From: Chiloscyllium plagiosum
Lineage: Eukaryota
Direction of reading: 5' to 3'
NCBI RefSeq assembly: GCF_004010195.1
Contig: NC_057737.1
Location: 7,886,799 to 7,950,798, forward strand
Length of the DNA stretch: 64,000 nucleotides
Both the position numbers and the translations under genes were made by a program. Of this stretch, positions 625 to 60,292 are shown in pieces (the stretch's first letter is position 1; every line of letters starts with the position of its first letter). The notes beneath the pieces were generated by a model. The model saw only the letters and a program-made list of their open reading frames with translations, was not told where the DNA came from and did not search any database.

Positions 625-1620
625 AAACCTGCCGATGCTGGAATCCAAATAGACAAACAGGAGGCTGGAAGAACAGTGTACAGTTCTGGTCGCCACATTA
701 CAAAAAGGATGTGGTTGCTTTGGAGAGGATGTTGCCTAGTATGGAAGGTGCTAGATATGAAGGGAGGTTGAGTAGGTTAGGTTTGTTTTCATTAGAAAAA
801 AGGAGATGGGGCGACCTGATTGAGATCTACAAAATCATGAAGGGTATAGACAGGATAGATAGAGATAAGTTTTTCCCAGGGTGAAGGATTCAATAACGAG
901 AGGTCACCCTTTCAAGGTGAGAGGTGAAAAGTCTAAGGGGGATACAAGCGGCAAGTACTTTACACAGAGGTCAGTGGGTGCCTGGAACGCATTGCCAGCA
1001 GAGGTGGTAGAGGCAGGCACGGTAGATTCATTTAAAATAAGTCTGGACAGTTGCATGAATAGGTGGGGAGCAGAGGGATACAGATGCTTAGGAATTGGGC
1101 AATAGGTTTAGACAGTAGATTTGGATTGGCTCAGGCTTGGAGGGCCTGTTCCTGGGCTGTAAATTTTCTTTGTTCTAAGAACACAGTAAGCCAGGCAGCT
1201 TCAGGAATTGGAGAAGTCAATGTTTCAGGTATTAAAGGTACTTTTTCCTGTTAAAAACGGTAAAAAGTAAGAAGACAATCCAGGGAGATCAGTAGACAGA
1301 AGACTGAAGACAGCGGAGAAGACAGAGACTGTGTGGACTTGAGATTAATTTAATGTAAGTTTAATAATTATTATTGGAGCAGCATTTTTATAGAGTTGGA
1401 GTCAGATAGTAATTGGTTCAGGGAAAGGAACTTGGATTTGTTAATAGTTTTTGTTTTGCGTTCTGTTAGGAAAATACATTGTTATTTTTCTTTAAGCAGT
1501 GGAAATTAGTCCTCCAACCTTTCTCGTCCGGAAGTAGGGTTAATACCCAAAACATTGACTTCTCCATCTCCTGATGCTGCCTGGCTTGCTGTGTTCTTCC
1601 AGCCTCCTGCTTGTCTACTG
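625..1620. repeat. Inverted pair of Penelope-type terminal repeat pieces (625-675 + 1177-1232 versus 1530-1620)
   Basis: GCCAGGCAGC..CAGGA..TGGAGAAGTCAATGTTT and its reverse complement AAACATTGACTTCTCCA..TCCTGATGCTGCCTGGC. Confidence 0.7.
676..1176 (+). mobile_element. 5'-truncated CR1-clade LINE inserted in a Penelope-type terminal repeat
   Basis: RT C-terminal motifs (TRGH.FKV, FTQR.VGAWNALP). 7-bp TSD AAGAACA at 669-675 and 1177-1183. Confidence 0.85.
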
Positions 1621-1918: not shown

Positions 1919-2687
1919 GTAAGTTGCAGTCAGTCTTGCTTTTGCTGTTGAATGTGAATGCTTGATGCTGGGGATCTGATTGGGAATTCCTTCAGCTGTA
2001 GGAGTCACTCTCGGGTTAATAACGGTGGGGGCTGGGGGGGGGAAAATCCCCTTTCACCAGGCCACTGCTGAAAACTCTAATCATTGCATCTCCAGCAGAC
2101 TCCCCCCTTCTCGATCCTTTGTTTCTCAGGTGTGTTCCTTTACCTGGCTGCTGGGCTGTGCAGTAGAACCCTGTAACTGTAACAATCTGAATTGTTACTG
2201 TTGCCACGTTCTGAAACTGTAACAATTTCCATCCCCTCGCTTCAGTGTTGCACACCTGAGAGTTTACTTCCCCTTCCCCCAGACTTTTTCATCAGCTTCT
2301 CGAGACCCAAGTAATGTTCTGTGGAGCTAAAATAGAAAACTCCACAGCAGCCTGGCATGCATTCGTGGAGACAAAGCAGAGTTTGATGTTTCAAGACCAG
2401 TTCTTCACAACTGGACTCCAAACACTAACTATGCTTCCTGTCCACATGTTGCCAGAACTGCTGAGTTCCTCCTGCAATTTGTTTTGTTTCAGATTTTTAG
2501 CATCTGCAATTTTGTTTTAATGTCCCATGGATCTGGATTCAAATCTGACCATGGACAATTCTTTTGAGGTACTCAAAGAGAGTACTGCATTGGGTGGTAA
2601 TGGTGTGCAGGGATATGGGGAGAAGGTAGGAGATTGGCGCTAGCTCATAGAGCCAGACTAGACAATAGAGTAGGCATAAGAGACATT

Positions 2688-2795
2688 GAGGTCTGCAGAT
2701 TCTGGAGATCAGAGTTGTGTGCGTTGCTGGAAAAGCACAGCAGGTCAAGCAGCATCCGAGGAGCAGGAAAATCGACGTTTCGGGCTGGAGCCCTG
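2688..2795. mobile_element. Penelope-type terminal repeat fragment (same family as 17179 and 26453)
   Basis: GAGGTCTGCAGAT.CTGGAGATCAGAG...GCTGGAAAAGC.CAGCAGGTCA.GCAGCATC...ATCGACGTTTCGGGC. Confidence 0.75.
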
Positions 2796-7875: not shown

Positions 7876-8204
7876 GCAAGTCTCTTGAAGAGAAAAATTA
7901 TTTGAATCTGTTCCTTTTACATTAGCTGTGTCCCTGTTGGTAGCTCTCTGATCCCTCAATTACAAACATCCTGCTTCAAGTTCTGTTACAGGTTTTGAGC
8001 TCAAAAACTAAAGCTGCTACTCCAGTACAGTACTGGGGGAATGCTGCACTGTTAGAAATGTACTCTTATACATGATAAAAGGTTTATGCAAAGGTAAAGG
8101 CCATTTGGCCTATCATACTTGCATGGGCTTATTAAACTAGCATCATTGCCTCGTACCCCAGTCTCCTGAATTTTTATCCAAATAAATGGGACTTCTTTCA
8201 CTGG

Positions 8205-11255: not shown

Positions 11256-11429
11256 TTTGCTGTCTGGTTTGGAATCCTGATGCATGCAGCACCTCCTGGG
11301 AAGGTGACTGGCCTCCCTTCCAGCCTTACATCAGAACATTTTCAAACAATACTGGGGAGTGAGACCAGAGGACAATGACTTAATTTGTTAGCTTGTACCT
11401 GTAGCTTGATTAAGTTAGTAGCATTTAGC

Positions 11430-12245
11430 GTCGTAGGCATGCAGCACAGAAACAGACCCTTCGGTCCAACTTGTCTGCACCAAACAGACCTTCCAACTTT
11501 GACCTAATCCCATTTGTCAGCATTTGGCCCATATCCCTCTGAACCTTTCCTATTCATATACTTATCCAGATGCCTTTTAAATGTTGTAATTGTACCAGCC
11601 CCCACCATTTCCTCTGGCAGCTCATTCCAGACATGCACTACCCTCTGGGTGAAAACGTTGCCCCTCTGGTCCCTTTTAAATCTTACCCCTCTCACCCTAA
11701 ACATATGCCGTCTAGTTTTGGATTCCCCTATCCTCAAAAAAAAACTTTGGCTATTCACCCTATCCACACCCCTCATGATTAAACCTCTATAAGGTCACCC
11801 CTCAGTCTCTGATGTCCCCGGGCAAACAGCCCCAAGCCTATTCAGCCTCTCCCTATAACTCAAATCCTCCAACCCTCGCAACATCCTTGTAAGTCTTTTC
11901 TGCATGCTCTCAGGTTTAATAACATCCTTCCTGTAGAAGGGTGACACGAATTGTATGCAGTATTCTAAAAGTGGCCTCACCAATGTCCAGTACAGCTACA
12001 ATATGAAGTTCCAACTCTTATCCTTGATGTTCTGACCAATAAAGGTAAGCATACCAAACACCTTTGTCACCACCCTGTCCACCTGTGACTCTATATTCAA
12101 GGAACTATGGACTTGCACCCCTACGTCTCTTTGTTCGGCCACATTTCCCAGGGCCCTACTGTTAACTGTATTAGTGCTGCTGTGGTACGCCTTATCAAAA
12201 TGTAACACCTCACATTTATCTAAATTAAACCCAATCTGCAATAAC
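11430..12245 (-). mobile_element. CR1-clade LINE 3' region
   Basis: Minus ORFs FNLDKCEVLHF, VRPLLEYCIQF, LSYRERLNRLG and FTQRVVHVWNELP. Confidence 0.92.
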
Positions 12246-16369: not shown

Positions 16370-17390
16370 GCTTTTTTCTTTCGTTTTATATAAATGATTT
16401 AGATGTGAATATAGAAGGTATTTGGTTAGTAAGTTTGCAGATACCACTGTTGACACTGGAGAAGGTTATCTCAGAGTATAACGGTACCTTGATAATTGGA
16501 CCAAGGATTGGCAGATGGAGTTTAAGTTTAGATTGATAAGGGAAACCAGGGCAGGGCTTACACAGTTAATGGTAGGGCCTTGGGGAGTGTTGCTGAACAA
16601 AAGGTGCATAGTTCCTTGAAGGTGGAGTTGCAAGAAGATAGGGTGCAGAATGTGTTTGGTATACTTACCTAGATTTGGTCAGTGCACTGAGTATAGGAGT
16701 TAGGAGGTCATGTTGTGGCTGTACAGGACATTAGTGAGACCATTTTTAGAATACTGCATTTAATTCTGGTCTCTCTGCTGTAGAAAGGGTGTTGTTATCC
16801 TTGAAAGGGTAAGTTCAGAAAAAAAGTACATAAATGTTGCTGGGATTGTTGGGATTTGAGCTACAGGGAAAGGCTGAATAAGGCTGGGGCGTTTAACCCT
16901 GGAGCGTCAGAGGCTGAGGGATGACCTTACAGAGGTTTATAAAATCATGAGGCTGAATAGCCAAGGTCTTTTTCCCAGGTTGGGGGAGTCCAAAGCTAGA
17001 GGGCATAGGTTTACGATGAGAAGGGAAAGATTAAAAAGAGATCTAAGGGGCAACTTGGGCTGGTTTGTGTATGGAATGAGCTGCCAGAGGAAGTGATGGA
17101 GGCTGATACAATTACAGTATTTAAAAGGCATCTGGATGGGTACATGAATAGGAAGAGTTTGGAGGGATATGGGCCAAAGCTGAAAATGTGTTGCTGGAAA
17201 AGCGCAGCAGGTCAGGCAGCATTCAAGGAACAGGAGAATCGATGTTTCGGGCATAAGCCCTTCTTCAGGAATCAGGATATGGGCCAAATGCTGGCAAAGG
17301 GGATGAGATTAATTTGGGATAGCTGGTTGGAATGGACATGTTGGACCAAAAGGTCTGTTTCTGTTCTGTACATCTCTGTAACTCTATGAC
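16370..17390 (+). mobile_element. CR1-clade LINE RT/3' end with a nested 96-bp Penelope-type insertion
   Basis: F..YINDLD motif through to the CR1 3' tail. The insertion at 17179-17274 splits the tail. Confidence 0.88.
17179..17274 (-). mobile_element. 96-bp Penelope-type insertion carrying a hammerhead-like core
   Basis: 14-bp TSD GGATATGGGCCAAA at 17165-17178 and 17275-17288. The minus strand reads CTGAAGA A GGGC TTAT GCCC GAAA CA TC. Confidence 0.85.
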
Positions 17391-19744: not shown

Positions 19745-19875
19745 TCAATTCTGAAGATGGATCACTGAACCCGAGATGTTAACTCTGTGTTTTTCTTTCC
19801 ACAGATGCTGCCAGACCTGCTGAGTTTCTCCAACAATTACTGTTTTAGTTTCAGATTTCTGCAGTTCTTTGTTTT
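19745..19875 (+). mobile_element. Penelope-type terminal repeat fragment, second family (also ~2320-2520, 36925-37075, 37480-37585, 53360-53465, 60500-60690)
   Basis: TTCTGAAGA.GG.TCACTG.AC.CGA.A.GTTAACTCTG...CAGATGCTGCCAGACCTGCTGAGTTT.TCCA.CAATT. Confidence 0.7.
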
Positions 19876-19945
19876 ACTCTCAATTCTTTGTTTGTGAGGC
19901 ATCAGTTTCAGTGTTGGAGCTCAGAGGGGGGCTTTGTGTTAAATT

Positions 19946-21823
19946 CTGGATGTAGGTTTGCTCGCTGAGCTGGTAGCTTTGTTCTCCAATGTTTCGTCAC
20001 CATACTAGGTAACATCATCAGTGAGCCTCCAAATGAAGCAATGGTGGTATGGCCTGCTTTCTAATTATGTGTTTAGGTTTCCTTGGGTTGATGATGTCAT
20101 TTCCTGTGGATAAGTCATTTCCTGTTCCTTTTCTCAGGGTTGGTAAATGGGATCAAAGTCAATGTATTTGTTGATAGAGTTCCGGTTGGAATGCCATGCT
20201 TCTAGGAATTCTTGTGTGTGTCTCTGTTTGGCTTGTCCTAGGATGGGTGTGTTGTCCCAGTCGAAGTGGTGTCCTTCCTTATCTATATATGAGGATACTA
20301 GTGAGAGTGGGTCATGTCTTTTTGTGGTTAGCTGATGTTCATGTATCCTGGTGGCTAGTTTTCTGCCTGTTTGTCCAATGCAGTGTTTGTTACAGTTCTT
20401 GCAAGGTATTTTGTAAATAACATTAGTTTTGTTTATTGTCTGTATAGGGCCTTTCAAGTTCATTAGCTGCTGTTTTAGCATGTTGGCGAGTTTGTGGGCT
20501 ACCATGATGCCAAGAGGTCTGAGTAGCCTGGCAGTCATTTCTGAGATGTCTTTGATGTAGGGGAGAGTGGCTAGGGTTTCTGGATGCGTGTTGCCTGCTT
20601 GTTTGGGTTTGTTGCTGAGAAATCTGTGTTCATTGGGTACCCGTTCTTTTTGAATACACGGTTTAGGTGATTTTCCTCTGCTCTGCATAGTTCCTCTGTG
20701 CTGCAGTGTGTGGTGGCTCACTGAAGTAATGTTCTGATGCAGCTCTGTTTGTGGATATTGGGATGATTGCTTCTGTAGTTCAGTATTTGGTCCATATGTG
20801 TTGTTTTCCTGAGGACGCTGGTTTGAAGTTCTCCATTGGCTGTTCGCTCTACTGTGACATCTAGGAATGGCAGTTTGTTGTTGTTTTTCCTCCTCTTTAG
20901 TGAATTTTATGCCAGTAAGGAGATTATTGATGGTCTTGAAGGTTTCCTCTAATTTGTTTCATTTAGTGATGACAAAGGTGTCATCCACGTAGCGGACCCA
21001 AAGTTTGGGTTGGATTGTTGGCAGAGCTGTTTGCTTGAGGCTCTGCTAAGAACCTTGATATCGGAGATCCCATGGGTGTACCTTTGCTTTGTTTTGTAGG
21101 TTTTGTTGTTGAAGGTGAAATGGGTTGTAAGGCATAGGTTCACTAGCTTAGAGTCACAGAGTCATAGAGATGTACAGCATGGAAACAGACCCTTAGGTCC
21201 AACCCGTCCATGCTGACCAGATATCCCAACCCAATCTAGTCCCACCTGCCAGCACCCTGATGATAATTCAAGCTTCAACAACAAAACCTACAGACAGACC
21301 AACGGAACACCCATGTCATTTACAAAATACCTTGCAAGAACTGTATCAAACACTACATTGGACAAACAGGCAGAAAACTAGCTACCAGGATACATGAACA
21401 TCAACTAGCCACAAAAAGATATGACCCTCTCTCATTAGTATCCTTACATATGGATGAGGAAGGACACCACTTTGACTGGGACAACACATCCATCCTAGGA
21501 CAAGCCAAACAGAGACACGCATGAGAATTCCTAGAAGCATGACAATTCCAAATGGAACTCTATCAACAAACACATTGACTTGGATCCCATTTACCACCCC
21601 CTGAGAAAAAGAACAGGAAATGGCGCCACCACAGGAAATGGTGTCATCAACCGAAGGAAACCTAAACACATAAATAGAAAGTGGGCCATACCACCAGTGC
21701 TTCATTCGGAGGCTCACTGATGATGTTATCTTGTGATGAAATGTCAGAAAATGAACCTTCCAGCTCAGCGAGCAAACTTACATCCAGAACCTCAACCTGA
21801 GCTACAAATCTTTTCAAAACTCA
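19946..21823 (-). mobile_element. Penelope-like retroelement with inverted architecture (RT + GIY-YIG on minus, inverted 3' copy on plus)
   Basis: Minus ORF LPYIKDISE...NVIYKIPCKNC..HCIGQTGRKLATRIHEH...FLEAWHS (GIY-YIG), with RT remnants to ~21150. Plus-strand inverted copy at 21260-21823. TSD CTTT(G/A)TGTTAAATT at 19932-19945 and 21824-21837. Confidence 0.92.
21150..21258 (-). mobile_element. CR1 3' tail at the inversion junction of the Penelope element
   Basis: AGAGTCATAGAGATGTACAGCATGGAAACAGACCCTT.GGTCCAACCCGTCCATG, the reverse complement of the tail at ~25250-25340. Confidence 0.8.
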
Positions 21824-21997
21824 CTTTATGTTAAATTGTTTTGTGCACAGTCAGCATATATGTACATACTGATTGCACACTTGATGTTGTGAATGTGCTC
21901 CACTGTATACTAAGGTCTTAGCAAAACAAAACAGAACAAATATTCAGGGGCCAGTTTGGTCACTGTTTTATAAATTGTATGTGTGATCTGTTTTCAG

Positions 21998-23559: not shown

Positions 23560-23881
23560 GGGGCGGCACGGTGGCACAGCGGTTAGCACTGCTGCCTCAC
23601 AGCGCCAGGGATCTGGGTTCGATTCCCGCCTCAGGCGACTGTCTGTGCGCAGTTTGCACATTCTCCCTGTGTCTGCACGGGTTTCCTCCGGGTGCTCCGG
23701 TTTCCTCCCACAGTCCAAAGATGTGCAGGTCAGGTGAATTGGCCACGCTAAATTGCCCACAGTGTTAGGTGCATTAGTCAGGGGTAAATATGGGTCTGGG
23801 TGGGTTACACATCAGAGGGTCAGTGTGGACTTGTTGGGCCAAAGGGCCTGTTTCCACACTGTAGGGAATCTAATCTAATCA
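23560..23881 (+). mobile_element. Full-length HE1-like V-SINE
   Basis: GGGCGGCACGGTGGCACAG.GGTTAGCAC head, V-domain, CTAAT repeat tail. Confidence 0.92.
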
Positions 23882-24154
23882 TTCTCTACTTTTCTTTGTA
23901 TTCTCATAAGTCATCATGTCTGCCATGCACCTTTGCCCAAATGTATGCTTTTCCCTTGCATTTGATGCTTTCCCTAACTACTTTAGTTAATCCTGCATGG
24001 GTTAGATTTTGACTGCTGTAAAGTATCTGTCACTCCTCTATTGAACTGTTTCATACTATAATATACTCCAGCTAGCTCAGCCTTCATACCCACACAGTTT
24101 CCCTTATTTAAAAAGGAAGTACTAGTTGTACTCCCGGTTTTCTCCCTTTTAAAC

Positions 24155-25340
24155 TCGATAGTCACAGGTGAGGTGCCGGAAGACTGGAGGTTGGCAAACA
24201 TGGTGGCCTATTTAAGAAGGGTGGTAATGACAAGCCAGGGAACTATAGGCCAGTGAGCCTGACGTCGGTGATGAGCAAATTGTTGGAGGGAATCCTGAGG
24301 GACAGGATTTACGCGTGTTTGGAAAGGCAAGGACTGATTAGGGATAGTCAACATGGCTTTGTGCGTGGGAAATCATGTCTCACAAACTTGATTGAGTTTT
24401 TTGAAGAAGTAACAAAGAAGATTGATGAGGGCAGAGCAGTAGATGTGATCTATATGGACTTCAGTAAGGCATTCGACAAGGTTCCCCATGGGAGACTGAT
24501 TAGCAAGGTTAGATCTCACGGAATACAGGGAGAACTAGCCATTTGGAAACAGAACTGGCTCAAAGGTAGAAGACAGAGGGTGGTGGGTTGTTTTTCAGAC
24601 TGGAGGCCTGTGACCAGNNNNNNNNNNNNNNNNNNNNNNNNNNNNNNNNNNNNNNNNNNNNNNNNNNNNNNNNNNNNNNNNNNNNNNNNNNNNNNNNNNN
24701 NNNNNNNNNNNNNNNNNNNNNNNNNNNNNNNNNNNNNNNNNNNNNNNNNNNNNNNNNNNNNNNNNNNNNNNNNNNNNNNNNNNNNNNNNNNNNNNNNNNN
24801 NCTTTCCTTTATTGGTCAGAGTATTGAGTACAGGAGTTGGAAGGTCATGTTGCGACTGTACAGGACATTGGTTAGGCCACTGTTGGAATATTGTGTGCAC
24901 TTTTGGTCTCCTTCCTATCGGAAAGATGTTGTGAAACTTGAAAGGGTTCAGAAAAGATTTACAAGCATGTTGCCAGGGTTGGAGGATCTGAGTTACAGGG
25001 AGAGGCTGAACAGGCTGGAGCAGTTTTCCCTGGAGCGTCAGAGGTTTACAAAATTATGAGGGGCATGGATAGAGGGGAAAGATATAAAAGAGACCTAAAG
25101 GGCAATTTTTTCACGCAGAGGGTGGTATGTGTTTGGAATGAGCTGCCAGAGGATGTGGTGGAGGCTGGTACAACTGCAACATTTAAGAGGCATTTGAATG
25201 GGTATATGAATAGGAAGGGTTTGGAGGGATATGGGCCAGCTGCTGGCAGGTGGGACTAGATTGGGTTGGGATATCTGATCGGCATGGACGGGTTGGAACG
25301 AAGGGTCTGTTTCCATGCTATACATTTCTACGACTCTATG
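24155..25340 (+). mobile_element. Young CR1-clade LINE RT region and 3' end (spans the assembly gap)
   Basis: ORF GNYRPVSLTSV..KLLE...SQHGFVRGKSCLTNLIEFF...IYMDFSKAFDKVPH. Confidence 0.95.
24618..24801. other. Assembly gap (184 N)
   Basis: Run of N inside the CR1 element. Confidence 1.
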
Positions 25341-25730: not shown

Positions 25731-26452
25731 TACATTAAAATCCCTGTAGTTATTGCTGTCCCTTTATCACAAGCTCCTCGTATACCCCTCCCTTCGTCAG
25801 GTACCGTTCACTTACTGCAGATCACACCAACCAATGATTTATTTCCCCTATAGTTGTTCTTCAAAACCCCACAGTCTCTTCATTCTGATCTCCTCAGCTA
25901 ATTATTCCACCAGGATGACCTTTGCTTGGAGTGCCACCCTCTGCCTTTACCAAACTTCCTATACTTTTTGAATGGAATGTACCCTTCAATATCCAGATCC
26001 CAAACTTGTTATTCTGAAACTGTGTCTTTGTGATTGCTATCAGATATTCATTCACTTCAATGAGCAACATAAATGTGTACTTTTGCTTTATGCCATTTGT
26101 AATGTTTGCAGCAAGTGGTGTTGACTGATGGGTTTTTTTTGTTGAACGACCCTTTTCGTCCCTTAATTTTCCACCTAAAATATTTTGTTGTCCTGCCTCA
26201 GCTGTCTCCCTTTCATTGCATGTACGTCAGTCCATCACCTAACCCAACTCGCTTACCTTTAAAGCCCTCTCTGCTTCCCTGGTGTTGGGGCTTGCAAGAG
26301 CACCGGTCCCTGAATGGTTCAGCTGGTGACTGTCCCAGTGGTACACATTTTTTTTCTCTCAAAACTGCTGCCAGTATCCCACGAACCGCAGCTCAGTTCC
26401 CAAATAGTCTTTGAGCCGTACATTCACTTTGCTAGCTTTATTATTCACTGTG

Positions 26453-26604
26453 GAGAAAGTGAGGTCTGCAGATGCTGGAGATCAGAGATGGAAATGTGTT
26501 GCTGGAAAAGCGCAGCAGGTCAGGCAGCATCTAGGGAACAGGAGAATCGACGTTTCGGGCATTAGCCCTTCTTCAGGAATGAATTCCAGCAACACATTTC
26601 CATC
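26453..26604 (-). mobile_element. 152-bp fold-back Penelope-type insertion with an intact hammerhead-like core
   Basis: 15-bp TSD TTATTATTCACTGTG at 26438-26452 and 26605-26619. Internal inverted repeat AGATGGAAATGTGTTGCTGGAA / TTCCAGCAACACATTTCCATCT. Confidence 0.88.
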
Positions 26605-27068
26605 TTATTATTCACTGTGTGCCAGCGTGGTTCAGATAGTAACCCAGAGATGATTACTTTGCTGAGGTTCTATTTTGTAATTAGCACCTAACTTCACTGC
26701 AGACTTTTGTCCCCCCCATGTCGTTGGTGCCGACATGGACCGTGACTGCTGGATCTATATTAATGTGAGTTGTTGTTGTTGAAGCAGCATTGACTTGTAT
26801 AAAGTGTCTCTCTCTCTCCCTCTCTCTACACTCCATCCCTCTCCCACTCTGTAACATGTTCTAAATATAGCCCAGCTTAGTCAAGTCATGCAGGGAGCTG
26901 GAAACAGTGCGACTGGGAAGTCTTTTTCCTGCAGGTTACCACAATTAAAATGCTTTTAAATTGATTTGAGGAGCTGTGATGTTGCTCCATTTATGGCCAT
27001 CAACTGGATGAAAGTCTGTTGATAAAAACTGCTGGAGTCTCATTTTCTCCTAATGTTTTATTTTGCAG

Positions 27069-28326: not shown

Positions 28327-28544
28327 GTAAGATCCCTAAGCTGTTGCCCTTGCAAGACAGGACGTGCATTTCACAATCTCTGATCGTTTGGCTAAGTAGT
28401 TTTCAAAGTTGTAATGTAGGAAGTGCGACCACCAAATTGCAAATAGTGCTGGATCGTCACTAGATAATCTTTTTCTGTAGTGTTCATTGAGGGATTAATA
28501 TTGTTGGGGATATGGCACAATGAATGCTGCTCTTTTTCAAAATG

Positions 28545-28812
28545 ATTACATTCCCTACAGTGTGGAAACAGGCCGTTCAGTCCAATCAGTCCACACCGAC
28601 CCTCTGAAGAGCAACCCACCCATACCCATTACCCTCTGACTATTTCACCTAACACTATGGGCAATTTAGCATGGCCAATTCACCTGACCTGCACATCTTT
28701 GGATTGTGGGAGGAACCCGGAGGAAACCCACGCAGACACGGGAGGATGTGCAAAATCCACACAGACAGTCGCCCGAGGCTGGAGTCGAACTCGTGTACCT
28801 GGTGGTGTGAGG
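28545..28812 (-). mobile_element. HE1-like V-SINE
   Basis: Same V-domain and tail as 10581-10909. Confidence 0.85.
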
Positions 28813-29194
28813 CATCCTGCCCAAAATAGACCGTGGGGTCTTGTATGTCCAGCAGAGATGTTCCAGTTGTGGCCTCAGTTTAACGTTCATTTGAAAGATA
28901 GCTCCTCCAACAGTTCGGCACTTCCTTCAGCAGGGCACCCAGCATGTCAGCCTGTCAGAGCTCAAAGCTTTGTTTAAAAAACAAAGATGAACGGATGCAG
29001 TGGGGCTTAAACCCCAGGCCAGCGAGACCCACTGAACTGAGCTGACATTTTATATGCGGTTTGGAATTGGAAATGAGAAATCGCCACCTACTGGCAGTGA
29101 CTGCTCTGCAGGAGGTTGTCACTGAAGTGCAGAACAAGATTAACATTTCAGGCAGATGTTTACAGGTCCTTAACCAGCGTCACTCTATCATTAG

Positions 29195-29422: not shown

Positions 29423-30943
29423 TTAATTGATCATTATCGTATTGCTGCTGTTCATGGAAGCTTGCTGTGTGCATATTGGCTTCCTGCATTACAACTGTGA
29501 CTAAACATCTATCATAGCTCATAGTAAAGTGCTTTGAGACATCCTGAGGGTGTGTGAAAGGTGCTACAAACAGTAATTTCTGTTTGCTGTGGGAAATCCC
29601 GACTAAATGATTTGCAAGGAAGCAAGAGCTCAGGGTTGAATTGGGTGAGTTGGATTGGCACTTCTTCCGTTCATCTTTGTTTTTTAAACAATATATTCTC
29701 ATGTGGAACATGCAGGTCATTGGCCAGCATTTATTGTCTGTTTCTAATTGCCCTTTGAGCAACTTGCTTGGCCATTTCAGAAGGCAGTTAAAGGTCTGGA
29801 GTCCCACATAGGCCAGACTAGATCAAGACAGTTGGTTTCCTTCCCTCAATGAATTTAATGCACCAGATGGGCTTTCAGGACAATAAATGGTAGTTATCAT
29901 AGTCCCCAGCAGTAGGATATTTTATATTCCAGATTTTATTTACTGAATTTAATATAAGCTCTCAGCTTGGGTTTTGAACCCAAGTTCCCCGGAGGATTGG
30001 ACTAGTCAATTACAATACCATTATGCCACCATCTCTTCTTGTTTCAAATCCAGATGAATAAGCAATATCCACTTACATGGTGTGATTAAGGCAAACTGAC
30101 CTTTCTGAGACCACACTTACTGTCCTGATCCGAAATGTTGATTTTCCAGCTCCGATGCCACATGACATGCCCTTTCCAGCCCATTTTTTTTTACCAACAC
30201 TGACTTCCAGCACTTGTAGTCCTTCCTTTCTCCACCTTACTGTCTGTAAGCCTGAGACTGCTCTTCTCTCCTCACAGACATAGCCCGAGAGGCTGTGGTG
30301 AGAGTGACTGGTAATTCACTGTGGGGAGCAGTGCTGGATTACTGAGATAGAAGGGCAGGACTAAGAAACTTCTTTTGTGTTTAGCTGAACAACTTTTCTG
30401 TGTTTCTCTTGTTTTGTCTTCCTCTGCGTCCTTTATGTTTATAGTTTTCATCATTGTGTTTACATCGTCCCACCGACCAGAGTCTCCAACAACCGGCTCC
30501 ACTCGGAGCAATGCCACTATGGTACAAAATACTGATATTGTCAGTTCAAAGTGTTTGTAAAAAAAACTGTTAGATTGAGGTTACCCTTCGTAGAAAGGGT
30601 CAAATGTGGATAAGCTCCAAGTCTCGTGAGCTTCCAAACTCCCTTTCCAAATCTCATCCCCTCTTCCCCTTCTCCTTCAATATATCTACTATTTCTTAAA
30701 TCTGTCTCTTTGACCAGACATTTGACTGCCCTTTGTGATATCTCTCTCTATGACTCGATGGTGAATTTTATTTGATACTTGCACTTGTGCAAAGTCTTAG
30801 AAAGTTTGTTGACGTCAAAGACGTGAATAAATGCCAGTTTTGATTGTTGTTGACTGGAATGCGGTTAGGTAATAATTCAGTTATCCGGACGTACACTTTT
30901 CCTCTTTTAAGCTGAGTGATCCAAATCTTCTGTTTGTTCCTAG

Positions 30944-31103: not shown

Positions 31104-31594
31104 GTAATATCTCCTCTAGTGTCTTCCCTGAGCCAGCAATGTGGATCGCCGAGGATGCACGGACTGGGGGGGAAAGCAGTTTACCTAAAGTCTTTTCTGT
31201 TGGCAAAAAAGACGTCGGAAGAAATTTGTTGAGTTTCAAAATTGGGATAGATGCAGACTATCAGGCCCAATGAACTATTGAGTTAACTCCAACCATCCAT
31301 ATCACTCGTAGTTTTATCACACCAATGGAGGCTATTTGGCCTAACAGGTCTGTGGTATAATGGAAAATAAGAATGATGATGAACTGATGATGTTACTCTG
31401 ACATCAGTAAAGCAGTTAGGATGAAGAGAAGCAGGCATGAGATGATTCAAAAAAAGTATATGAAGAGAGAGCTCATAGATGTTACACTAGAGATCTGTCT
31501 TCACCAACCTGCACAGATGTAGATAGTGTCACAGTACCAAAGGAGCAGAAGAGCCCAGGATTAGGAGCCAGCAGCTTCTCAGAATGCACGTAGA

Positions 31595-31920
31595 TACATG
31601 TATATAAAATCATGAGGGGTATAGATAAGGTGAATGGCAGGTGTCTTTTCCCTAGGGGGAATTTCAAGACTAGGAAGCATAATTTTAAGATGAGAGGAGA
31701 AGTATTTTAAAAAGACATAAAAACATTTTTTTTTTACATGGTGGGTCATGTGTGCAATGAGCTTCCAGAGGAAGTGGTGGATGTGGGTACAGTTATAACA
31801 TTTAAAAGATGTTTAGAAAGTACATGAATAAGAAATGTTTGGAGGGGTATGGGCCAAGTGCAGGCAAATGTAACTAATTTAGTTTGGAGTTAGGGCCTAT
31901 TTCCAAGCTGTATGACTGTA
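31595..31920 (+). mobile_element. CR1-clade LINE 3' end
   Basis: Same family as 8205-8590. Confidence 0.82.
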
Positions 31921-35617: not shown

Positions 35618-35963
35618 GGGCGGCATGGTGGCTCAGTGGTTAGCACTGCTGCCTCACAATGCCAGGAACCCGGGTTCGATTCCCACCTCTGGTGACCGTC
35701 TGTGTGGAGTTTGCACATTCTCCCCGTGTCAGTGTGAGTTTCGTCTGTGTGCTCCAGTTTCCTCCCACAATCCAAAGATGTGCAGGTTAGGTGAATTGGC
35801 CATGCTAAATTGCCCATAGTGTTCAGAGCTGTGTAGGTGAGGTGCATTAGACAAATATAGAGTAGGGGAATGGGATTGGGTGGGTTAGTCTTCACAGGGT
35901 TGGTGTGGACTTGATGGGCCAAAGGGCCTTTTTCCACACAGTAGGGATTCTCATTCTAATTCT
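35618..35963 (+). mobile_element. HE1-like V-SINE
   Basis: GGGCGGCATGGTGGCTCAGTGGTTAGCACTGC head and V-domain. Confidence 0.9.
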
Positions 35964-38900
35964 AAAGTCCATAAAGAATTTGGGAGAATTTTCTTTGTCC
36001 GTTCTGTGGAGTTGACGGTTGGTGAGGTGGTTCTGGGATGAGTGTAGATGAATTCCCACTCCTGGGAGTTTTGAGGTCAGCAGTCAGTGACTCAGCCTTG
36101 TCTGACTGTAGGAGAGCTCAGTTGGGGGGGGGGTGTGGGGGTGAAGGGAATTCCTGAGCTCAGCTTCTGCAGGCGTGTTTCTCATCAGCACCCCTGCAAG
36201 GCCCACCTCCCCCACTGGGATTACAGAGCCAGCTAGTCTCGGTGACAGCAGCAAGGTTTGTGGAATCACATCCCCGTTTTGGCCTGGTTCCTTATGTCAT
36301 ATTGACAGCTGTGTTACAACAAGGTAGCTCACCACCACATTCTGAAGAGCATGTAAACGGTGGGCAATAAAAGCTGTCCCAGTCAGCAATGCCTGTGTCC
36401 CATGAATAACATAAAAACAAATGTGCATTTAAATTTCTGAATGACCAGAAGATTTGGTCTGTCTTGTAATGGTTGCAAGGATCTGGCATCAGTAAAGGCC
36501 ATGCTTTTCTCTCCAACTTAATTCTCTCACTAACAAGGCAGCTTTGTGACCTTAGCCATTACTGCTGTCCAGTTAACTTTCCTTCACTTGTTGATGGGGT
36601 TTCAGCATTGCTGGCTGGGCCCACCTGTATTACCCATCCCTTATAGTCCTGGAGAAGGTGGTGGCGATCAAGACCAGGGACAGAAAAATGATAGCCTCCA
36701 ATGAAACCTCTCAACATTGCCCTCCTTGGAGTCCTGGACCCTAATTGTTGGGTCCCGATGTATCCCTTCTCCTGAGACTTAGCGCTAAGTTGTCCTCTTG
36801 GAACTGTTGCAGCTGTTGACACAGAGGAACAACCTGTAGGGAGGGGCTCTAAGGACCTGGGCCCAGTGATCATTCAAGGAACTGTATTAAAATAGCTAGG
36901 GTTCTGTTGATGTAAAGAAAGAACTGTAGACATTGGAAATTTGAAACAAAAACAGAGATTGCTGGAAAAACTCTGCAGGTCTGGCAGCATCTGTGCAGAG
37001 AGAAAAATGGAGTTAATGTTTTGAGTCCAGTGGGCCTTTTTCACAGCTGAGTTTTCCAGCAGTTTCTGTTTTTGGGTCGTATTAATATTTGACTCACTTT
37101 ACGATAGGGAATATTGTGGCACAGTGGATGAAACTAACTGAACATGTGGAGGTAACAAACCTTTTTGTCCTAGAATGACGACAATTAATTACTCCATCCT
37201 CCCTGTGATTTGGCTGCCTGTTGTAAAAACGTTACAGTAATCACCTTGTAAATTGAGAATGGTGGGGTTAGTCTTCTGCAAAGCTCAAATGGACCTATTA
37301 TATCAGCAAAAAGCATTATCCTCAGAAGGCTTCCAACAGACTGCTGAAAGCCAAGTTTAAAAAACACTTTTTATTTGCATAAAAATAAACAACTTTATGT
37401 AAAACAGCTACCGAGTTGGATTAATTTAAAGTTGTAATACAACGCCGACACTGCTGTTAGCAAAACACTGAAATTCTGTAGCAAAAACGGAAATTGCTGG
37501 AGAAACTCAGCAGGTCTGGCAGCATCTGTGGAGAGAGAAAAATAGAGTTAATGTTTCAAGTCCAGCGATCCTTCTTCAGAATTGGAATTCTTTGTAAATT
37601 TTGCAAAGCTCTACTTCTACTGGTGCCTTGTTCTGTTTGAACGAAATTTGTTTTTGTTGTTTAGTATTGTGCATATCTTTTCATCAATGAAATTTAAAGA
37701 GCCAAGGGCTGAGTGTGGGATACCTTCAAGGCTTGGATATGATGATTCAGACAAAAGGTGCCTTCAAATAATAATTTGTCTGTTTAAAAATCTCTCATGA
37801 TTGTTACATGGCCTGAAAGGATGATGGAAGCAAACTGAACAATAATTTTCAAGAAGAGAAATTGAATGAATACTTAGAGGAAAGGGTTACCAGCCTGTGG
37901 AGAGACGCAACAGAACCAAATTTTATAAAGGTTTTTTTTTCATTCATTCACAGGATGAGGTGCCACATGCAAGGCCATTTATTGCTTGTCCCAAATTGCC
38001 CATGAGACGGTCAGCTTTGTTGGTGAACTGCTACATTCCTTATGATATATAATCTCCCCCCCCCCCCTTGCAGCATTACAGGATTTTGACCCAGTGACAC
38101 TGAAGGACTGGTAATATATTTCCATGTCAGAATGGTGAGTGGCTTAGAGGGGAATTTGCAAGTAGTGGTGTTCCCATGCATCTGCTGCCCTTCTAATTGG
38201 TAGCTATTGAAGGAGCTTTGACAATGTTGTTGCAGTGTAACGTGTAGATGGTACACATTGCACGTAAGTAATGGAAGGAGTGAACATTGAAGCTGGAGGA
38301 TGGGATGACGAGTGGGCTTGATGGTGTCAAGCTTCTTGAGTTCTTTTTGGAACTGTACCCATCTAGACAAATGGGATGTATTCCATCACACTCCTGACGT
38401 GTGTGGATGGTGGACAGGTTCAGCGGCATAATCTCATAATCATAAAACAAACCAATATTGAAAAAGTGTTGTCATTTAAATCCACAGGACAATACCTCCT
38501 TTCAAAATGTGCCCAAAAAATTACTCTATACTTTAAGATTGTGGAGTTGGTACAGTTCTGATCTCATTTGTTATTGGTTGGGGAAGTGGAGTGGGATTGT
38601 GCCAGGTTCATACTAAGTAAAAAGTTACTGCATTTCTGTAGCACCTTTCGTGACTACAGAACGTTTCAAACCGCTTTACGACTAATGAAATACATTTTGA
38701 AGTGTAGCCGCAGGTGTAATGTAGGAAGTAAAGCAGCCAGCTTCCTATAAAAGGTAAGATCCTCAAATGTCATAGAATCCCTACAGTACCACGGTCCAGA
38801 TCAATGATGGGAACCTGGTGATGGACAGTTGTTTTGCAGTTTATTAATCAAAGGTGGAAGTACAGAGATCGATGGGTAAAAGTCCTGACTTCGACTTCTG

Positions 38901-40039: not shown

Positions 40040-42550
40040 ATGGTCATAGAACAGTACAGCGTGGGAGAAGGCCATTTGACCCATGATGTTGTGTCGAACA
40101 TGACAACAAATTAAACTATTCGCTTCTGCCTGCCCTTTTTCCATATCCCTCCATTTCTTGCATATTCATGTGCTCATCAAAAAGTTCCTGAAAGTACCTT
40201 AATCCGCCTCCACCACCACCCTCGGCAGTCCATTCCAGCCTCCTACCATTCTGTGTAAAAAGAAAACCTGCCCCATAACATCTCCTTTGAACATCTTCCC
40301 CCTCTCACCTTAAATGCATGCTCCCTAATTTTAGACATTTCAACTCGGGGGAAAAAGATTCTGACTGTCAACCCTATCTATGCAACTCATAATTTTATAC
40401 ACTTCTACCAACACTCCCTCCAACCTCTGCCATTCTGGAGAAAACAACCTGAGTTTTTCTAGCCTCTTCCAGGCTCTAAATCCTCTTTCGATGTCATAAA
40501 GAATAAAAGGGGATGAGGTGGACATTCCTCCAAGATACCCACATTCTGGCCTCTTGCACATTCCAAATTGTAATTGTCCCACTGCCAAAGGCCATCCTTC
40601 CAGTTGCCCGGGGCTCCCAACTTCTGGAATACTCTCCCAATGCCTCTTCATCTCTCTGCCTTGATTAGTTCCTTTTAAGATACTTCATTAAACCTTCTTG
40701 TTTGACCAAGCTTTTAGCCATCTGTCCTCGTAGATCCCCGGGGTGAAATTAAAACGGAAAATGCTGGAGAAATTCAGTAGGTGGCGCAGCAGCTGATGAG
40801 TTCAAAAAGAGGCTGATACCAAATATGGAGAATCTGTCTGTTTGATGAGGAGAAATTGAATAGATTGGGCCTATCCTCATCAGAATTTAGAAAAATGAAA
40901 GCGATCTTAGAGGTCTTGACAGGGTTGGGATGGAGGGAGAGTCTCGGATCAGACAGCATAATCCTCAGAATAAGGGATTGCAGACTTAATTCACAGATGA
41001 GGAGTAATTTCTTCTCTCAGGGTTGTGAATCTGTGGAATTCTTTACCACAGAGGGCCATCGAGGCTGGGTTGTTAAGTGTATTCAAGGAATCTAGGGTTA
41101 TGGGAGAAAGGCAGGAAAGTGGAGTTGAGGATTATCAGATTAGCCTTGATCTCATTGAATGGTGAAGTAGACCGAATGGGCTGTATGGCCTAATTCTCCT
41201 CTCTCATGGTCTTTTGGCTTGGTGTTATATAAAATAAACTGCTGGAGGAGGTGCTGTGACTAACAGGATAACCAGCCAAAGTAGGGTCTATTGGGTGGGG
41301 AGGAGAGATGGGTTGCATAGATAGGATGAGCCCAATGGCCTCTTTTCTGTACATTTCCATTTTTTTCATTCATTGACGGGATGTGGGCATCACTGGATAA
41401 GCAGACGTTTATTGTTTTCAAGCCCCCTTGAAACGAATGCTTACACTGTATTTGCCTTCCTAACTGCTAACTGAACCTGCATGTTAAACTTAAGAGAATC
41501 CTGAACTAGGATTCCTGAATCTCTTTATGCTTCAGATTTCTGAAACATTTTACCATTTAGAAAATTGTCTCCACCTCTATTATTCCATCTGCCACTTCTT
41601 TGCCCACTCTCCTAGCCTGTCCACCACCTTATGCAGCCTCCCTGCTTCCTGAATATTACCTGCCCCTCCATCTATCTTTGTGTCATTGCCAAACTTAGCG
41701 ATAATGCCCTCAGTTCCTTCATCAAGATTGTTATTGGGTAACATTAATAGTTGTGATTCTGGATTTTTATTGAACTAAAGTTCCACTGCCTGTCATGCAG
41801 GATTTGAACACTATCCCCAGAACGTTATCTGGGTCTCTGTGTGAGGAACATAAGAACAGGAGTAGGCCATTCAGCCCCTTGAGCCTGTCCTGTCACTCAT
41901 TCAGATCCTGGCTGATTTGTGGCTTAACTCAATATATCTGCCTTTGATCCAGAATCCTGAACACATTTGCTAAAGACAAATATATCTATTTCAGATTTAA
42001 AATGAACAATTGCCTGCATTAACTGCTGTTTGTGGAAGAGAGTTCCAAACCTCTACCATCCATTGTGTGTAGAAGTGCTTCCTTATATCTCTCCCAAACG
42101 GTCTGGCCCTAAGTTTTAGACTACACTCCCTAGAATCCCCAACCAGTGAAAATAGTTTATCTACCCTGTCTGACAAATTGTTAAGTGGTAATACCACTTG
42201 GCTATCACCTGTCAATAATCATGTTGCTATGAAAGGATGTTTCCTTGCGGTGGGTAATCTCGAAGTAGAGGTCATAATTTTAGGTAAGAGTTAGCAGATT
42301 TAAAATTGATGAGGAGAAATTTTTTCTCAAAGAATCATGAATTTGTGGAATCATCTGCTTCAGAGTGCGGTTGACGCTGTGACATTGAGTAAATTTAAGG
42401 AGGAGATAGTTTTTTAATTTGTAATGGGTTGAAGGGATAGGGCGAGCAGGCAGGAAAGTGGTGATGAGGCTAAGATCAGCTATGATTGTATTAAATGGTG
42501 GAGTGGGCATGAGGGGCTGAATGGCCTACTCCTGCTCCCAGTTCTCATGT
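40040..42550. mobile_element. Cluster of CR1-clade LINE 3' fragments (40040-40470 -, 40815-41210 +, 41845-42170 -, 42230-42550 +)
   Basis: RLEKLRLFS, NRLGLSSSEFRKM and FYTQ..VEVWNSLP motifs, plus shared AATGGCCTACTCCTG tails. Confidence 0.8.
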
Positions 42551-47359: not shown

Positions 47360-50300
47360 TAAATTAGGAACAGCAGTAGGCCATGTCACCCCTTGAATCT
47401 CCTCTGCCACTCATTAAGATAGTGGCTGATCTGGTTACTCGACATTCCTGTCTACCTCGAGTAATCTTTTACTCTCTTTCCTGATGAGAGTATCCATATA
47501 AGATTATTAAAGGATTGGACACTCTGGAGGCAGGAAACATGTTTCCGCTGATGGGTGAGTGCCGAACCAGAGGACACAGCTTAAAAATACGGGGTAGACC
47601 ATTTAGGACAGAGGTGAGGAGAAACTTCTTCACCAGAGAGTGGTGGCTGTGTGGAATGCTCTGCCCCAGAGGGCAGTGGTTAAGAAAGAGTTGGATAGAG
47701 CTCTCAAGGATAGTGGAATCAAGGGTTATGGAGACAAGGCAGGGACAGGATACTGATTAAGGATGATCAGTCATGATCATATTAAAAAGTGGTGCAGGCT
47801 CGAAGGGCAGAATGGCCTACTCCTGCACCTATTGTCTATTATCTATTGTCTATTGAGTCTATCTGCCTTAAAAATATTCAGAGGCTCAGCTTCCACTGAC
47901 TTTTCAAGATCAGAGTTCCAAAGACACTCAAGCCTCTGAGAAAATAATTCCTTAGCTGCCTTAAATCGGTAGCCCCTTATTTTTAACAGTGACCCTTTAG
48001 TTGTAGGTTGTAGAAAAATGCCCCGCTACATCCAGGAAGCCTCAGATTCTTGTCGATTTCAATCCAGCCACCCCTTATTTTTCTAAACTCCAATGGATAC
48101 AAGCTTAGCCTAACCAACCTTTCTTCACAAGGCAACTCACCCATTTCCAGGTATTAGTCCAGTAAACTTCCTTTGAACATTTCCACTGCATTTACGTTCT
48201 TAAATAAGGAAACCAACATCATACACAGTAATCCAAATGGGATGTCACCAATGTCCTGCACAACTGAAACTTAACCTCCCTATTTTTGTATCCAGTTACC
48301 CTTGCAAAATAATACATTCTAATAGCTTTCCTAATTGCCCGTTTTACCTGCAAATAACTTTTAACAATTCATATACTGGGATATCTAGATCCCTCTGCAT
48401 CTTAGAGATTGCTTGTTGTTTAGATAAATGTCTTTATTTTACTTCCCATGTTTCATGTTTTTTCCACATTTGCCATATCTTTGTCCACTCAGTTAACTTA
48501 TCTACCTCCCTTTAAAGATTCCTTGTGTCATCTTTACATTCTTAACTTTTTTGTGTGTGATTGGCAAGTTTGGCGATTTTATGCTCAGTCCCTTCACTCT
48601 AAGTCATTTATATAAATTGCAAAAACTTGGAGTGCCAGGACTATTCCTTGTAGCACACCACATGTTAAATCTTGACAACCGGAATATTACCCATTTATGA
48701 TCATTCTTTCTTCCCTTTCTATCCTTTATTTATGCTTACATGTTGTCCCCATAAGCTTTTATTTTCCACAATAACCTCTGAGGCATCTTATCTAAAGCTT
48801 TCTCAAAATCAATGCATTCACCAGTTCCCCTTTATCCATAGCATATGTTATTTCCTCAAGGAACTCCAGTAAATTAGATAAATATAATTTTTCTTTCACA
48901 ATGCCTTGTTGACTCTGCATGATTACTTTGAACATTATTAAGTGCTTTGTTGTAACATATTTAATATATTCTTATGTTTTCTCTGTGACAGATGTTAAAC
49001 TAACTAGCCTGCATTTCCTGCTTACTGTCTCCCTTTTTGAATAAAGAAATTATTTTTGCTATTTGCCAATGTATTGGATCCTTCCCCGAATCTAGAGAAG
49101 GTAAGAAAATCAAACCAGTCCATCAACTGTCTTACTAGCCAGTACTTGTAAGGTTCTAGGATGAAGTACATCAGGACTTGGGGACCTGTCAGCCTGCAGC
49201 TCCAACAATTTACTCAGTACCACGCTCCTGGTGATTATCATTTTCTTGTTCATTTTTCCCCCTCCTCTCTTTCCAGATTCTGAACTATTTCTGGGATTTT
49301 ACTTCTAAACACTTCAGTACACCAATACAAAATACCTGTTAATCTGCCATCTTATTTTTCCTTATTAATTCTCCAGACTCACTTTCTCTAGGACCAATGT
49401 TGACACTGTTAATTCTTTACATTTTTTGAAAATCAATAGAAAGGCTCACACTTTTTGTTTTATATTTCTAGCTGCCTTTCTCTTGTAGTCCGATGTTTCT
49501 CTCTGTATTAATGTTTCTTTAAAAAAAATTACACAACGCCAGGTGATAATCCAACAGGCTTATTTGGAAGTTCAAGCTTTCGGAGCGCTGCTCCTTTGTC
49601 AGGTAGCTCCCTGCCGAAGGAGCTGCACTCAGTGCTGTACATCTCTGACACTCCAAAAGCTTGTACTCCCAAATAAACCTGTTGAGAGGTGTTGTGTAAT
49701 TTTTAACTTCCTCCACCCCAGTCCAACACTGGCACCTCCACGTCATACTAATCTTTTGTCAGTCTTTGCTTTTTTTTATATTCTGCTGATCTTCTAACCT
49801 GTCACCCATTGTTTTGCACTTTCTTTTAAGTTTAATGCTCTCTTTAATTTTATTTAGACTGAGCCCTCTCCTTGGATTTTTTTCTTGCCGGAATGTACCC
49901 TTTCTATATAATCTGAATTATCCCCAGAAATGTCTGCCCTTCTCTATTACCTATTCCATTACTAATATTCCAGTTCACTTCAGTTCTGCTGTCACGTCCT
50001 CATAATTTCAGTTTAAAATACTAATCATGGACCCACCTGTCCTCCTCCAAGTGAATATAAAATGTAATCCCTGAAATAATTAATAAATCCTACCTCATTT
50101 CCAAGTCTTGTATAGCCTGCTCTCTAGTCAGCTCTAGCTCTGAGAAAATATCCCAAAAGCATTATATGAACTCTTCATCTATGCTGTCCTTGTCCATGTG
50201 ATTTTACTAGTCTATATGTAGATTAAAATCCCTCATGATTTTTTACAGGCTTCCTGATGAGCTCCCATTATTTCTTCATTTATACACCATCTTACAGTGT

Positions 50301-57104: not shown

Positions 57105-57221
57105 GTACTATGTCCCTTTGATTTATCACTAGATAAGATAAAGGTTGAGAAATCGCCTTTAGTGCTTGGATTTTGCTTTTCTCCACTAAAAGTAGATATT
57201 CAAGTAAGCTGTTGTTATAAG

Positions 57222-57372
57222 ATAGTGAAGACTGCAGATGTTGGAGAGTCAGAGTAGATAGTGTTCCGCTGGACAAAGCTCTGCAGGTCGGGCAACATGT
57301 GAGGAGCAGGAGAGTCGACATTTCGGGCAGGATCCTTCTTCAGATGCTGCCTGATCTGTTGTGCTTTTTTCA
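57222..57372. mobile_element. Diverged fold-back Penelope-type insertion (family of 26453)
   Basis: GACTGCAGATG.TGGAGA.TCAGAG...GAGTCGACATTTCGGGC..GA.CCTTCTTCAG, followed by inverted GATGCTGCCTGA.CTG. Confidence 0.7.
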
Positions 57373-59168: not shown

Positions 59169-60091
59169 TTAAAGATGTGGTAATTGCTACATGACTGTCA
59201 ATCAATTTCTTGAGCACAGAAATTCAATAATTAAAGTTTAAAGTAGTGAATTATTTGGAAGACTAATAAAATTTTAATCTCCTAATCCCATCATTCCTTC
59301 TCTTATCTTTCTTTGTGTTTGAATTGATATTGAAATCACTTGCTTGAATTCCCTTTCCTCCTCAGTGCTCCATTGTTTTTAATCCTAAATTCCATTAGTT
59401 AAGAAGGTAAAGTTGTTGATCCTATTCATCAAGCTCACCATGTTATCTTTTCACACTTCCTGAACAAATTTGTTTTTGATTAGCTTGAGGTAATTGTGCT
59501 TTGACGAGAACCTCAAGTAAAAACACTTACTTCTGCTTCAGTATGAGATTTCTATTTTTCACAAAACTTGGCATTATGAGCAAAGTTGTAGGCAGCTTGT
59601 GCCTACCCGTGTCAGAAGCCTTTAACTCTATCTATTTATCCTTTACTATAAATTGTGTCCTATGATCTGCCCCACTAGTTACCTGACAAAGGAGCAATGA
59701 TCCGAAAGCTTGAACTTCCATATAAACCTGTTGGACTATAACCTGGTGTTATGTGAATTTTAACTTTGTCCACTTCAGTCCATCACCGGCACCTTCACAT
59801 CCTCGTCATGTATGACATGTTATTTAATTTCTAAAAGGAAACCAGAGATTAATTTAATCTTGGGCCAGATCTCTCTATATTGCAACCATGCCCATGTGAG
59901 CAATCCCATGCAGCAAAAATCCTCATAAGTTGGGCTGATATTTTTGCAACATCTTCAGATGTATTTTATTCAGGAAGATGGATGTAATTAGAAGGTTGGA
60001 CGCTGCATTGTTCTAGGGAGCAGTTACATCAGTACCGTGGATCATTAACTCATTTAGTGTGCTTTTGAGGTAATTTTAGTCGGATTGTTTG

Positions 60092-60292
60092 ATGGATGTA
60101 AGTTTGCTCGCTGAGCTGGAAGATTCGTTTTCAGACATTTTGTCACCATACTAGGTAACTCCGGCTTCACTGAAGGCTCTCTGATGTTACCTAGTACGGT
60201 GACGAAATGTCTGAAAACGAACCTTTCAGCTCAGCAAGCAAACTTAGATCCAGAACCTCAACCTGAGCTACAAATCTTCTCAAAACCCACTA
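60092..60292. mobile_element. Solo fold-back terminal repeat of the Penelope family at 19946-21823
   Basis: Two inverted copies of the terminal repeat. 10-bp TSD GGATTGTTTG at 60082-60091 and 60293-60302. Confidence 0.88.

Follow-up and report, generated by a model that had tools for sequence, protein, structure and literature searches.

The stretch analysed here, a window of 64,000 nucleotides of the Chiloscyllium plagiosum genome, contains the genes NLE1 and ULK2, both on the (+) strand according to exon translations and PDB matches, together with copies of four repeat families, named here A to D, which carry a hammerhead motif (Table 1). An earlier sequence-only reading had described this motif as a minimal hammerhead core of short Penelope-derived repeats, lying mostly in introns of NLE1 and ULK2. 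All seven stretches it quoted were found at their coordinates, and the genes are supported, but the copies at 36.9 and 37.5 kb fall in the interval that separates the exons mapped for NLE1 from those mapped for ULK2. The focal core, placed at 26541..26580 (-), was confirmed, the minimal type I hammerhead at 26553-26576(-) being intact; together with its target duplications, the insertion that carries it spans 26438..26618. Other genomic copies of its 130-bp fragment are 93-100% identical. In the predicted fold of the family A monomer, the pairs of stem II have probabilities of 0.96-1.0 and those of stem I at most 0.02, as expected of a dimer-type motif; stem I is weak in this family, with two Watson-Crick pairs, a U-U mismatch and then an A-U pair. 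The hammerhead fold was absent from the minimum free energy prediction for the dimer; energy models are not expected to reveal it. Loop II of family A contains an ATG (window 26536-26563 and relatives) that opens a 26-codon frame across the cut site, and this frame could be an upstream ORF within the leader.

Table 1. Hammerhead-bearing repeat copies in the window and the parts of the focal insertion. Clade types are those suggested by the linker criterion; TSD, target site duplication.
Feature	Position	Strand	Details
Minimal type I hammerhead, family A	26549..26580	-	Intact; window core scans and pair probabilities
Focal hammerhead, stem I 5' strand	26580-26577	-	
Focal hammerhead, core	26576-26570	-	
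Focal hammerhead, stem II	26568-26557	-	
Focal hammerhead, GAAA	26556-26553	-	
Focal hammerhead, CG-UC	26552-26549	-	
Focal hammerhead, predicted cut	26549/26548	-	
Family A end fragment (Neptune-type PLE)	26452..26582	-	Young, 130 bp, hammerhead to tail
Focal insertion, inverted arm	26584..26604	+	Short (21 bp)
Focal insertion, TSD, 3' copy	26438..26451	-	14-15 bp
Focal insertion, TSD, 5' copy	26605-26618		14-15 bp
Family A solo copy	17175..17272	-	14-bp TSD; stem III CpG decayed
A-like copy, older	57220..57343	-	Core recognisable; short inverted arm
A-like copy	2680..2794	-	Truncated within core
A-like copy	1514..1603	+	Decayed
A-like copy, further	1177-1243		Decayed
A-like copy, further	30130-30235		Decayed
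Family B insertion (Poseidon-type PLE)	19946..21824	.	Single insertion; 13-bp TSD, 1 mismatch
Family B minus arm, open frame	20137-20958	-	274 codons; GIY-YIG motif
Family B minus arm, hammerhead	19992-20021	-	
Family B plus arm	21289-21824	+	Decayed hammerhead 21717-21741(+) and tail
Family B inverted pair	60093..60291	.	Short; core damaged
Family C inverted pair	49524..49745	-	Hammerhead 49578-49602(-), G8 to A, AGCU palindrome
Family C copy	59638..59801	+	Core decayed at 59683
Family D copy (older Neptune-type)	37467..37585	-	
Family D copy	19746-19879	+	
Family D copy	36914-37043	-	
Family D copy	53359-53466	-	
Family D copy	60504-60701	-	
Family D copy	2352-2500	+	
Family D copy	40751-40795	-	

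Intact and located within an NLE1 intron, the focal copy at 26553-26576 could be taken for an adopted regulator of the NLE1 pre-mRNA. We consider this extremely improbable, as the copy is antisense to NLE1, belongs to a set of 42,264 young cores that are equivalent to it (exact family A matches genome-wide) and has identical copies elsewhere; its intactness is explained by its youth. The same antisense orientation relative to NLE1 or ULK2 is found for the copies at 17268, 20021, 49602, 57343 and 60595; those in sense orientation (19751, 21717 and 59683) show damage. The window copies are probably dead-on-arrival passengers, the best preserved of which are antisense to one of the two genes and inert. 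Two further repeat families were seen. About a dozen copies of a ~330-bp repeat (58840-59168, 10586-10909, 23561-23888, 28544-28814, 35618-35968 and others) presumably belong with sequences like the shark HE1 V-SINE, and fragments of a longer family (8187-9481, 11426-12198, 16533-17390, 24802-25340, 31594-31887) we take to be, probably, the 3' end of a CR1-like LINE; the family A copy at 17175-17272 sits within one of the latter (16533-17390). A fragment resembling an LTR-retrotransposon reverse transcriptase was seen in one fetched locus (L055:2865-3281).

Scanning the window with a strict descriptor (CUGANGA-N-stem II-GAAA) gave four matches (17245-17268-, 19992-20021-, 21717-21741+ and 26553-26576-) as opposed to 0.33±0.65 in 30 dinucleotide shuffles. 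Ten sites have a core with at most one mismatch, and only 26553-26576 is fully intact; most copies are dead, as the earlier reading had thought probable for many of them. The cores at 17268(-), 21717(+) and 57343(-) are additions to the earlier list, some details of which had to be revised. At 19747-19783 the letters are GAGA-UG-UU and not GAAA-CA-UU, and the copy at 19992, cited for the shared palindrome layout, has lost ACGU, the majority of its family (B) having CG-UC. Family B had been regarded as a short repeat, but 19946-21824 is a single 1.9-kb insertion with two inverted arms, a 13-bp TSD and an ORF remnant. The families had been called otherwise dissimilar, but A and D are related (73-75% identity over 84 nt). 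The mutated G8 reported for family C applies to part of the family and fits CpG decay: among 50 copies, obtained with a query biased to the A form, 24 have C3-G8 and 19 have C3-A8. Two family C copies (L099, L132) were seen with U3 together with G8. No hammerhead family was among the eight matches of an Rfam scan at E≤10, so the motif was not recognised at the level of covariance models; Rfam thus misses a motif that is very abundant in the C. plagiosum genome.

An estimate of this abundance comes from 40 stretches of 10 kb that were not selected (384 kb excluding N) and contained 31 core matches versus 0-1 per shuffle in ten shuffles; one or two of the 31 are probably due to chance. The density of ~80 cores per Mb extrapolates to ~290,000 in the 3.56-Gb assembly, based on sampling that was not strictly random (round coordinates on contigs C1-C37). 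One family A pattern alone has 87,506 exact genome matches and its reversed control none, which bears out the high copy number proposed before. Penelope-like element (PLE) ends are present here as tens to hundreds of thousands of short fragments.

The core CUGANGA-N-stem II-GAAA-NN-UH was found in type I order throughout the families. In the majority sequences of ten subfamilies, 75 of 80 predicted pairs are kept (three of stem I, four of stem II and 15.2-16.2 per consensus), as opposed to 44.0±6.4 after permutation of the 3' strands; 0 of 20,000 permutations reach the observed value, although this is not a clean probability because the families are related. The family search patterns contained the core and part of stem II, which makes the core identity of 96% circular and the stem II covariation partly so, and three of the groups had only 3-5 members. 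Three B subfamilies differ at pair 3 of stem I (U-A, G-C and C-G), which together with the other pairs upholds the covarying stems of the earlier reading. The first stem II pair (G10.1-C11.1) is G-C in 9/10 consensuses, UH is present at the cut site in all ten, and the 15.2-16.2 palindrome is CG in seven, GC in two and a decayed CA in one, with no stem III loop. All 5/5 copies of subfamily D2 (L087, L128, L132, L137) have a compensatory U3-A8 core, a swap known from Schistosoma (Cervera and de la Pena, 2014; PMC4209133). By every feature that can be tested on sequence the motif is a minimal PLE hammerhead, its catalysis being predicted.

In all four families, in the fetched loci and in the window, the hammerhead belongs to a PLE terminal repeat and has the same orientation as the ORF. 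Upstream, longer copies of family A pass from a C-rich UTR to a GIY-YIG endonuclease that has a CX4CxxC linker (L008; Pfam PF01541, E 7e-5). Downstream, family A continues into a long reading frame (L161) with an apparent start ~165 nt past the inferred RNA start; this putative N-terminal frame had no Pfam match, and from its position we presume it to be the start of the PLE ORF. Relatives of family B contain a reverse transcriptase (RVT_1, E 3e-13, L056) and a GIY-YIG match below the cut-off (E 0.003, L032), and lack the linker; the 274-codon frame of the window copy had no Pfam match. The family C hammerhead is in the 3'UTR after the C-terminus of a PLE endonuclease and a (CA)n tract (L072, L074, L081, L084, L090), and that of family D is downstream of a GIY-YIG remnant (L097, L129). 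The reverse transcriptase was thus seen in family B, and in A, C and D the endonuclease end was traced from partial elements. A CX2-5CxxC linker before GIY-YIG is described as characteristic of Neptune and absent in Poseidon (PMC8557442). The linker is present in L008 (A) and in a C-like element (L027), partly present in L129 (D) and absent in B, which suggests that A, C and D are Neptune and B is Poseidon, an assignment resting on the linker criterion and not on a reverse transcriptase tree. Window and fetched copies also show the inverted 5' arm, the 30-40-nt tail and the TSD of PLE insertions. As side observations, a family A inverted pair has inserted into a different Neptune-type PLE, in its endonuclease region (L027:330-1400), the RT-thumb and GIY-YIG frame of this second element being nearly open, and tandem amplification of ~29-bp and 73-bp units was seen inside PLE endonuclease regions (L008:2010-2300, L023:1760-2470). 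Core scans, consensuses and ORF links therefore support the view of a Penelope-type minimal type I hammerhead with a palindromic stem III. The separate ribozyme-bearing mobile RNA system that had been proposed was overstated, as every family continues into a PLE GIY-YIG ORF and the class has been in print since 2014 (PMC4209133).

The ends of family A copies were mapped in 719 kb that had not been selected on this family, with 158 matches, 87 of them at least 85% identical and 41 reaching the tail. Counted from the C of CUGA, 28 of the 41 begin at -9 to +9, three further upstream and one at the cut (+28), and the 3' ends cluster near +81-95 and +122-127. Genome-wide, the nine templated upstream bases are present in 11,561 of the 42,264 exact young cores (27%) and missing in ~73%; mutation and subfamily variation could lift the upstream-extended share to perhaps 40%. 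Roughly half of the family C matches listed extend upstream of the start. The 5' ends analysed are those of families A and C, the family D list being mixed with family A matches and therefore set aside. A query with the ORF start gave 41 matches, of which 11 were fetched and 10 were informative: upstream 3'UTR was present in 0/10, and five start at -5 to -1, two of these with an extra G. As the copies are intact through the predicted cut and begin ~30 nt upstream of it, ribozyme cleavage does not seem to make the templates. In one of the 41 copies (L159:4204-4455), which has an internal deletion, the downstream joint falls exactly at the predicted cut, and this copy is possibly the cDNA of a cleaved RNA.

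This single joint, the very high copy number, the short and similar lengths of the copies and the pLTR-derived retrozymes reported from vertebrates, including one chondrichthyan (bioRxiv 10.64898/2026.07.22.740005), would all suit a non-autonomous mobile RNA of the retrozyme or SINE type, possibly circular, that is released by cleavage and spread by PLE enzymes. However, linear products of such an RNA would begin at +28 and circles would give no stop at -4, neither of which is seen; head-to-tail unit arrays are absent among the family A loci listed, and the hammerhead end continues into PLE ORFs on both sides. We therefore judge a mobile RNA of this kind to be very unlikely.

A second line of evidence comes from the base at the junction. 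At -5, where the element has C, family A copies genome-wide have G in 2161 cases versus 1372 for A and T together, a 4.3-fold G excess at 42% GC. Among the first 100 rows with G, the preceding base at -6 varies (52 A, 40 T and 8 C by eye count), so the excess does not stem from one subfamily. C at -5 is also frequent (17/100 among the matches listed), from which we conclude that starts are spread over about -6 to -1. The junction-letter pattern excluded long templated copies by its first letter and was not the source of the proportions given above. The G is not part of the target duplication in L098 or in the copy that starts at 17272 (-), where an extra TG precedes the stem I strand; automatic TSD calling succeeded in 12/50 rows, some of them spurious. 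In family C, G precedes the A at -8 (that is, at -9) in 9/100 of the matches listed (eye count), 5/9 of which are not explained by the inverted arm, and none of the short copies among the matches listed has A or T there. The start bases stand in the contexts TCATT, TCAGT and CCAC(A/T), which presumably fit the Initiator consensus. An extra G is an accepted mark of cap copying in L1 insertions (PMC11702581). Part of the excess could be due to a G-biased terminal transferase activity. Telomerase-like addition of ATTC at the 5' ends was considered because the repeat occurs in query-selected loci, but it was found in 0/100 of the junction rows listed. One insertion (L161:170-985, G000:C14) comprises an inverted arm and two tandem units between its TSDs; each unit is led by G before the stem I strand, the first extends ~550 nt into the reading frame, and the whole looks as if the reverse transcriptase had left one RNA at its cap and resumed inside a second. 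An RNA run (X24, poly(A) single-cell, ~2% read) showed no pile of starts or ends, a library type that cannot show start or cut sites; its reads come from both strands, with a depth of hundreds on the short repeat versus 0-10 on the ORF, which fits read-through of passenger copies. The missing upstream bases, the hammerhead-first ORF copies, the Initiator-like motif and the G excess together argue that the PLE transcript starts at stem I, and for the focal copy we infer the A at 26580 (-) as the transcription start of the family A RNA.

The same 5' clustering might arise if transcription began elsewhere and the reverse transcriptase stalled at a folded or protein-bound hammerhead, or if ends were joined by microhomology near CUGA. 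The many inverted pairs joined in a near-palindrome around CUGA and the spread of starts over ~18 nt would agree with this, yet solo copies with TSDs share the same start, the stop falls beyond the structure and not before it, and stalling gives no reason to expect, in each of two families, a G at a single fixed position. We regard such an origin of the clustering as improbable. It is also doubtful that the motif is catalytically dead and has been retained because it acts in the promoter, binds a protein or lets the RNA dimerise. GAAACG is found ~28 nt past the inferred start, near the usual position of a downstream promoter element; furthermore, the in vitro activity of minimal hammerheads is low (PMC4209133) and Naiad PLEs thrive without canonical hammerheads (PMC8557442). 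Nevertheless, the U3-A8 swap, the UH in every consensus and the stem I covariation fit selection on catalysis, and the anole PLE hammerhead cleaves with its protein present (PMC11167929), which makes a dead motif rather unlikely.

Taken as a whole, we hold with a probability of about 0.8 that these are known PLE minimal hammerheads, that the RNA is capped, uncut and begins at stem I, and that the short copies are strong-stop-like cDNAs. Pol II would initiate from an internal promoter, at an Initiator-like A that precedes CUGA by 4 nt in families A and D and by 8 nt in family C, so that the hammerhead would form the first 32-36 nt of the capped RNA, as the DNA junctions suggest. The PLE protein would nick the target, and reverse transcription would be primed internally at two sites ~35 nt apart, near +90 and +124; two such sites have been shown in vitro for the anole PLE (PMC11167929) and are matched here by the two 3'-end clusters. 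Priming near the RNA 5' end would yield a cDNA of 90-130 nt running through the uncut hammerhead to the cap, which would often be copied as G. If both target strands were primed, inverted pairs would result, in many of which one arm has the tail and the other lacks it, as seen in family B, and a jump to a second RNA may produce tandem units. The hammerhead is predicted to fold only as a dimer, via the ACGU or AGCU palindrome and probably aided by protein, and active elements would keep it by selection. If it were cleaved, the capped 32-nt leader would be lost, and such an RNA would rarely serve as template. In the anole system, insertion does not need hammerhead cleavage and the main substrate is uncut RNA (PMC11167929).

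Minimal hammerheads in the pLTRs of metazoan PLEs, including fish Neptune, Poseidon and Xena, were described by Cervera and de la Pena (2014; PMC4209133). Our families share with them the type I core, the extra nucleotide before stem II, G10.1-C11.1, the short stem I and the palindromic 15.2-16.2, and likewise several covarying families per genome, the U3-A8 variant and mostly solo copies. Copy numbers given there are ~9,000 for Xenopus and 4,000 for coelacanth, as opposed to 87,506 matches and ~80 cores per Mb here, obtained with a different descriptor; the text consulted there neither names sharks nor takes up a location at the 5' end of the RNA. Similar to the anole Poseidon PAc (Frangieh et al., 2024; PMC11167929) are the two internal starts of reverse transcription that define a 30-40-nt tail, the extension of both target strands, the uncut RNA as main template and the hammerhead at the pLTR-ORF junction. 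However, the PAc ORF begins in stem II, whereas the long frame here begins apparently ~165 nt past the inferred start, and a cap signature or clustering of 5' ends is not given in the main text on PAc. PLE promoters are described as internal with an Initiator, and that of D. virilis Penelope is a TATA-less internal pLTR promoter of this kind (Schostak et al., 2008; PMC2377424). There, the start lies upstream of the hammerhead, which is preceded by a 46-nt exon and a 75-nt intron, in contrast to the apparent start at the first base of stem I here; the hammerhead-first layout is therefore not universal. Non-LTR retrozymes, also in Chondrichthyes, carry type I hammerheads from PLE pLTRs in tandem unit arrays (bioRxiv 10.64898/2026.07.22.740005), whereas the insertions here are dispersed, solo or inverted, and have TSDs; in the window and the fetched copies no tandem hammerhead arrays were found, save the L161 tandem. 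Our literature search found neither a cap signature or start site at PLE hammerheads nor PLE hammerheads in sharks, though subscription papers, Repbase notes and supplements (Fig. S2 of PMC11167929) may hold such data. While the class itself has been known since 2014, the missing upstream bases, the hammerhead-first ORF copies, the Initiator-like start and the G excess are what the present analysis adds.

As the ribozyme class is known, what deserves to be pursued is the evidence on the start site and the cap, which touches on the function of PLE hammerheads. Their role in endonuclease-bearing PLEs has been stated as unclear (PMC8557442), and the current view has them cutting RNA to unit length for circularisation (PMC4209133). 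Against this view, the junctions of young copies, counted in their tens of thousands, indicate templates that are capped and uncut and start at the hammerhead, which would leave removal of the cap, control of translation or pairing of RNAs as possible roles. We propose, tentatively and as less probable than not, that the hammerhead is the first structure of the capped mRNA and serves as a switch which, triggered by dimerisation or by protein, removes the 32-nt leader together with its cap, and that the palindrome may pair templates. If this is true, loss of the leader would shut off translation, or would mark the RNA once a two-subunit RNP has formed, and the palindrome may pair two RNA templates for the two-strand priming behind the inverted arms. 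In that case, the start site of these elements would be recorded base by base in over 100,000 strong-stop-like cDNAs inserted across the genome.
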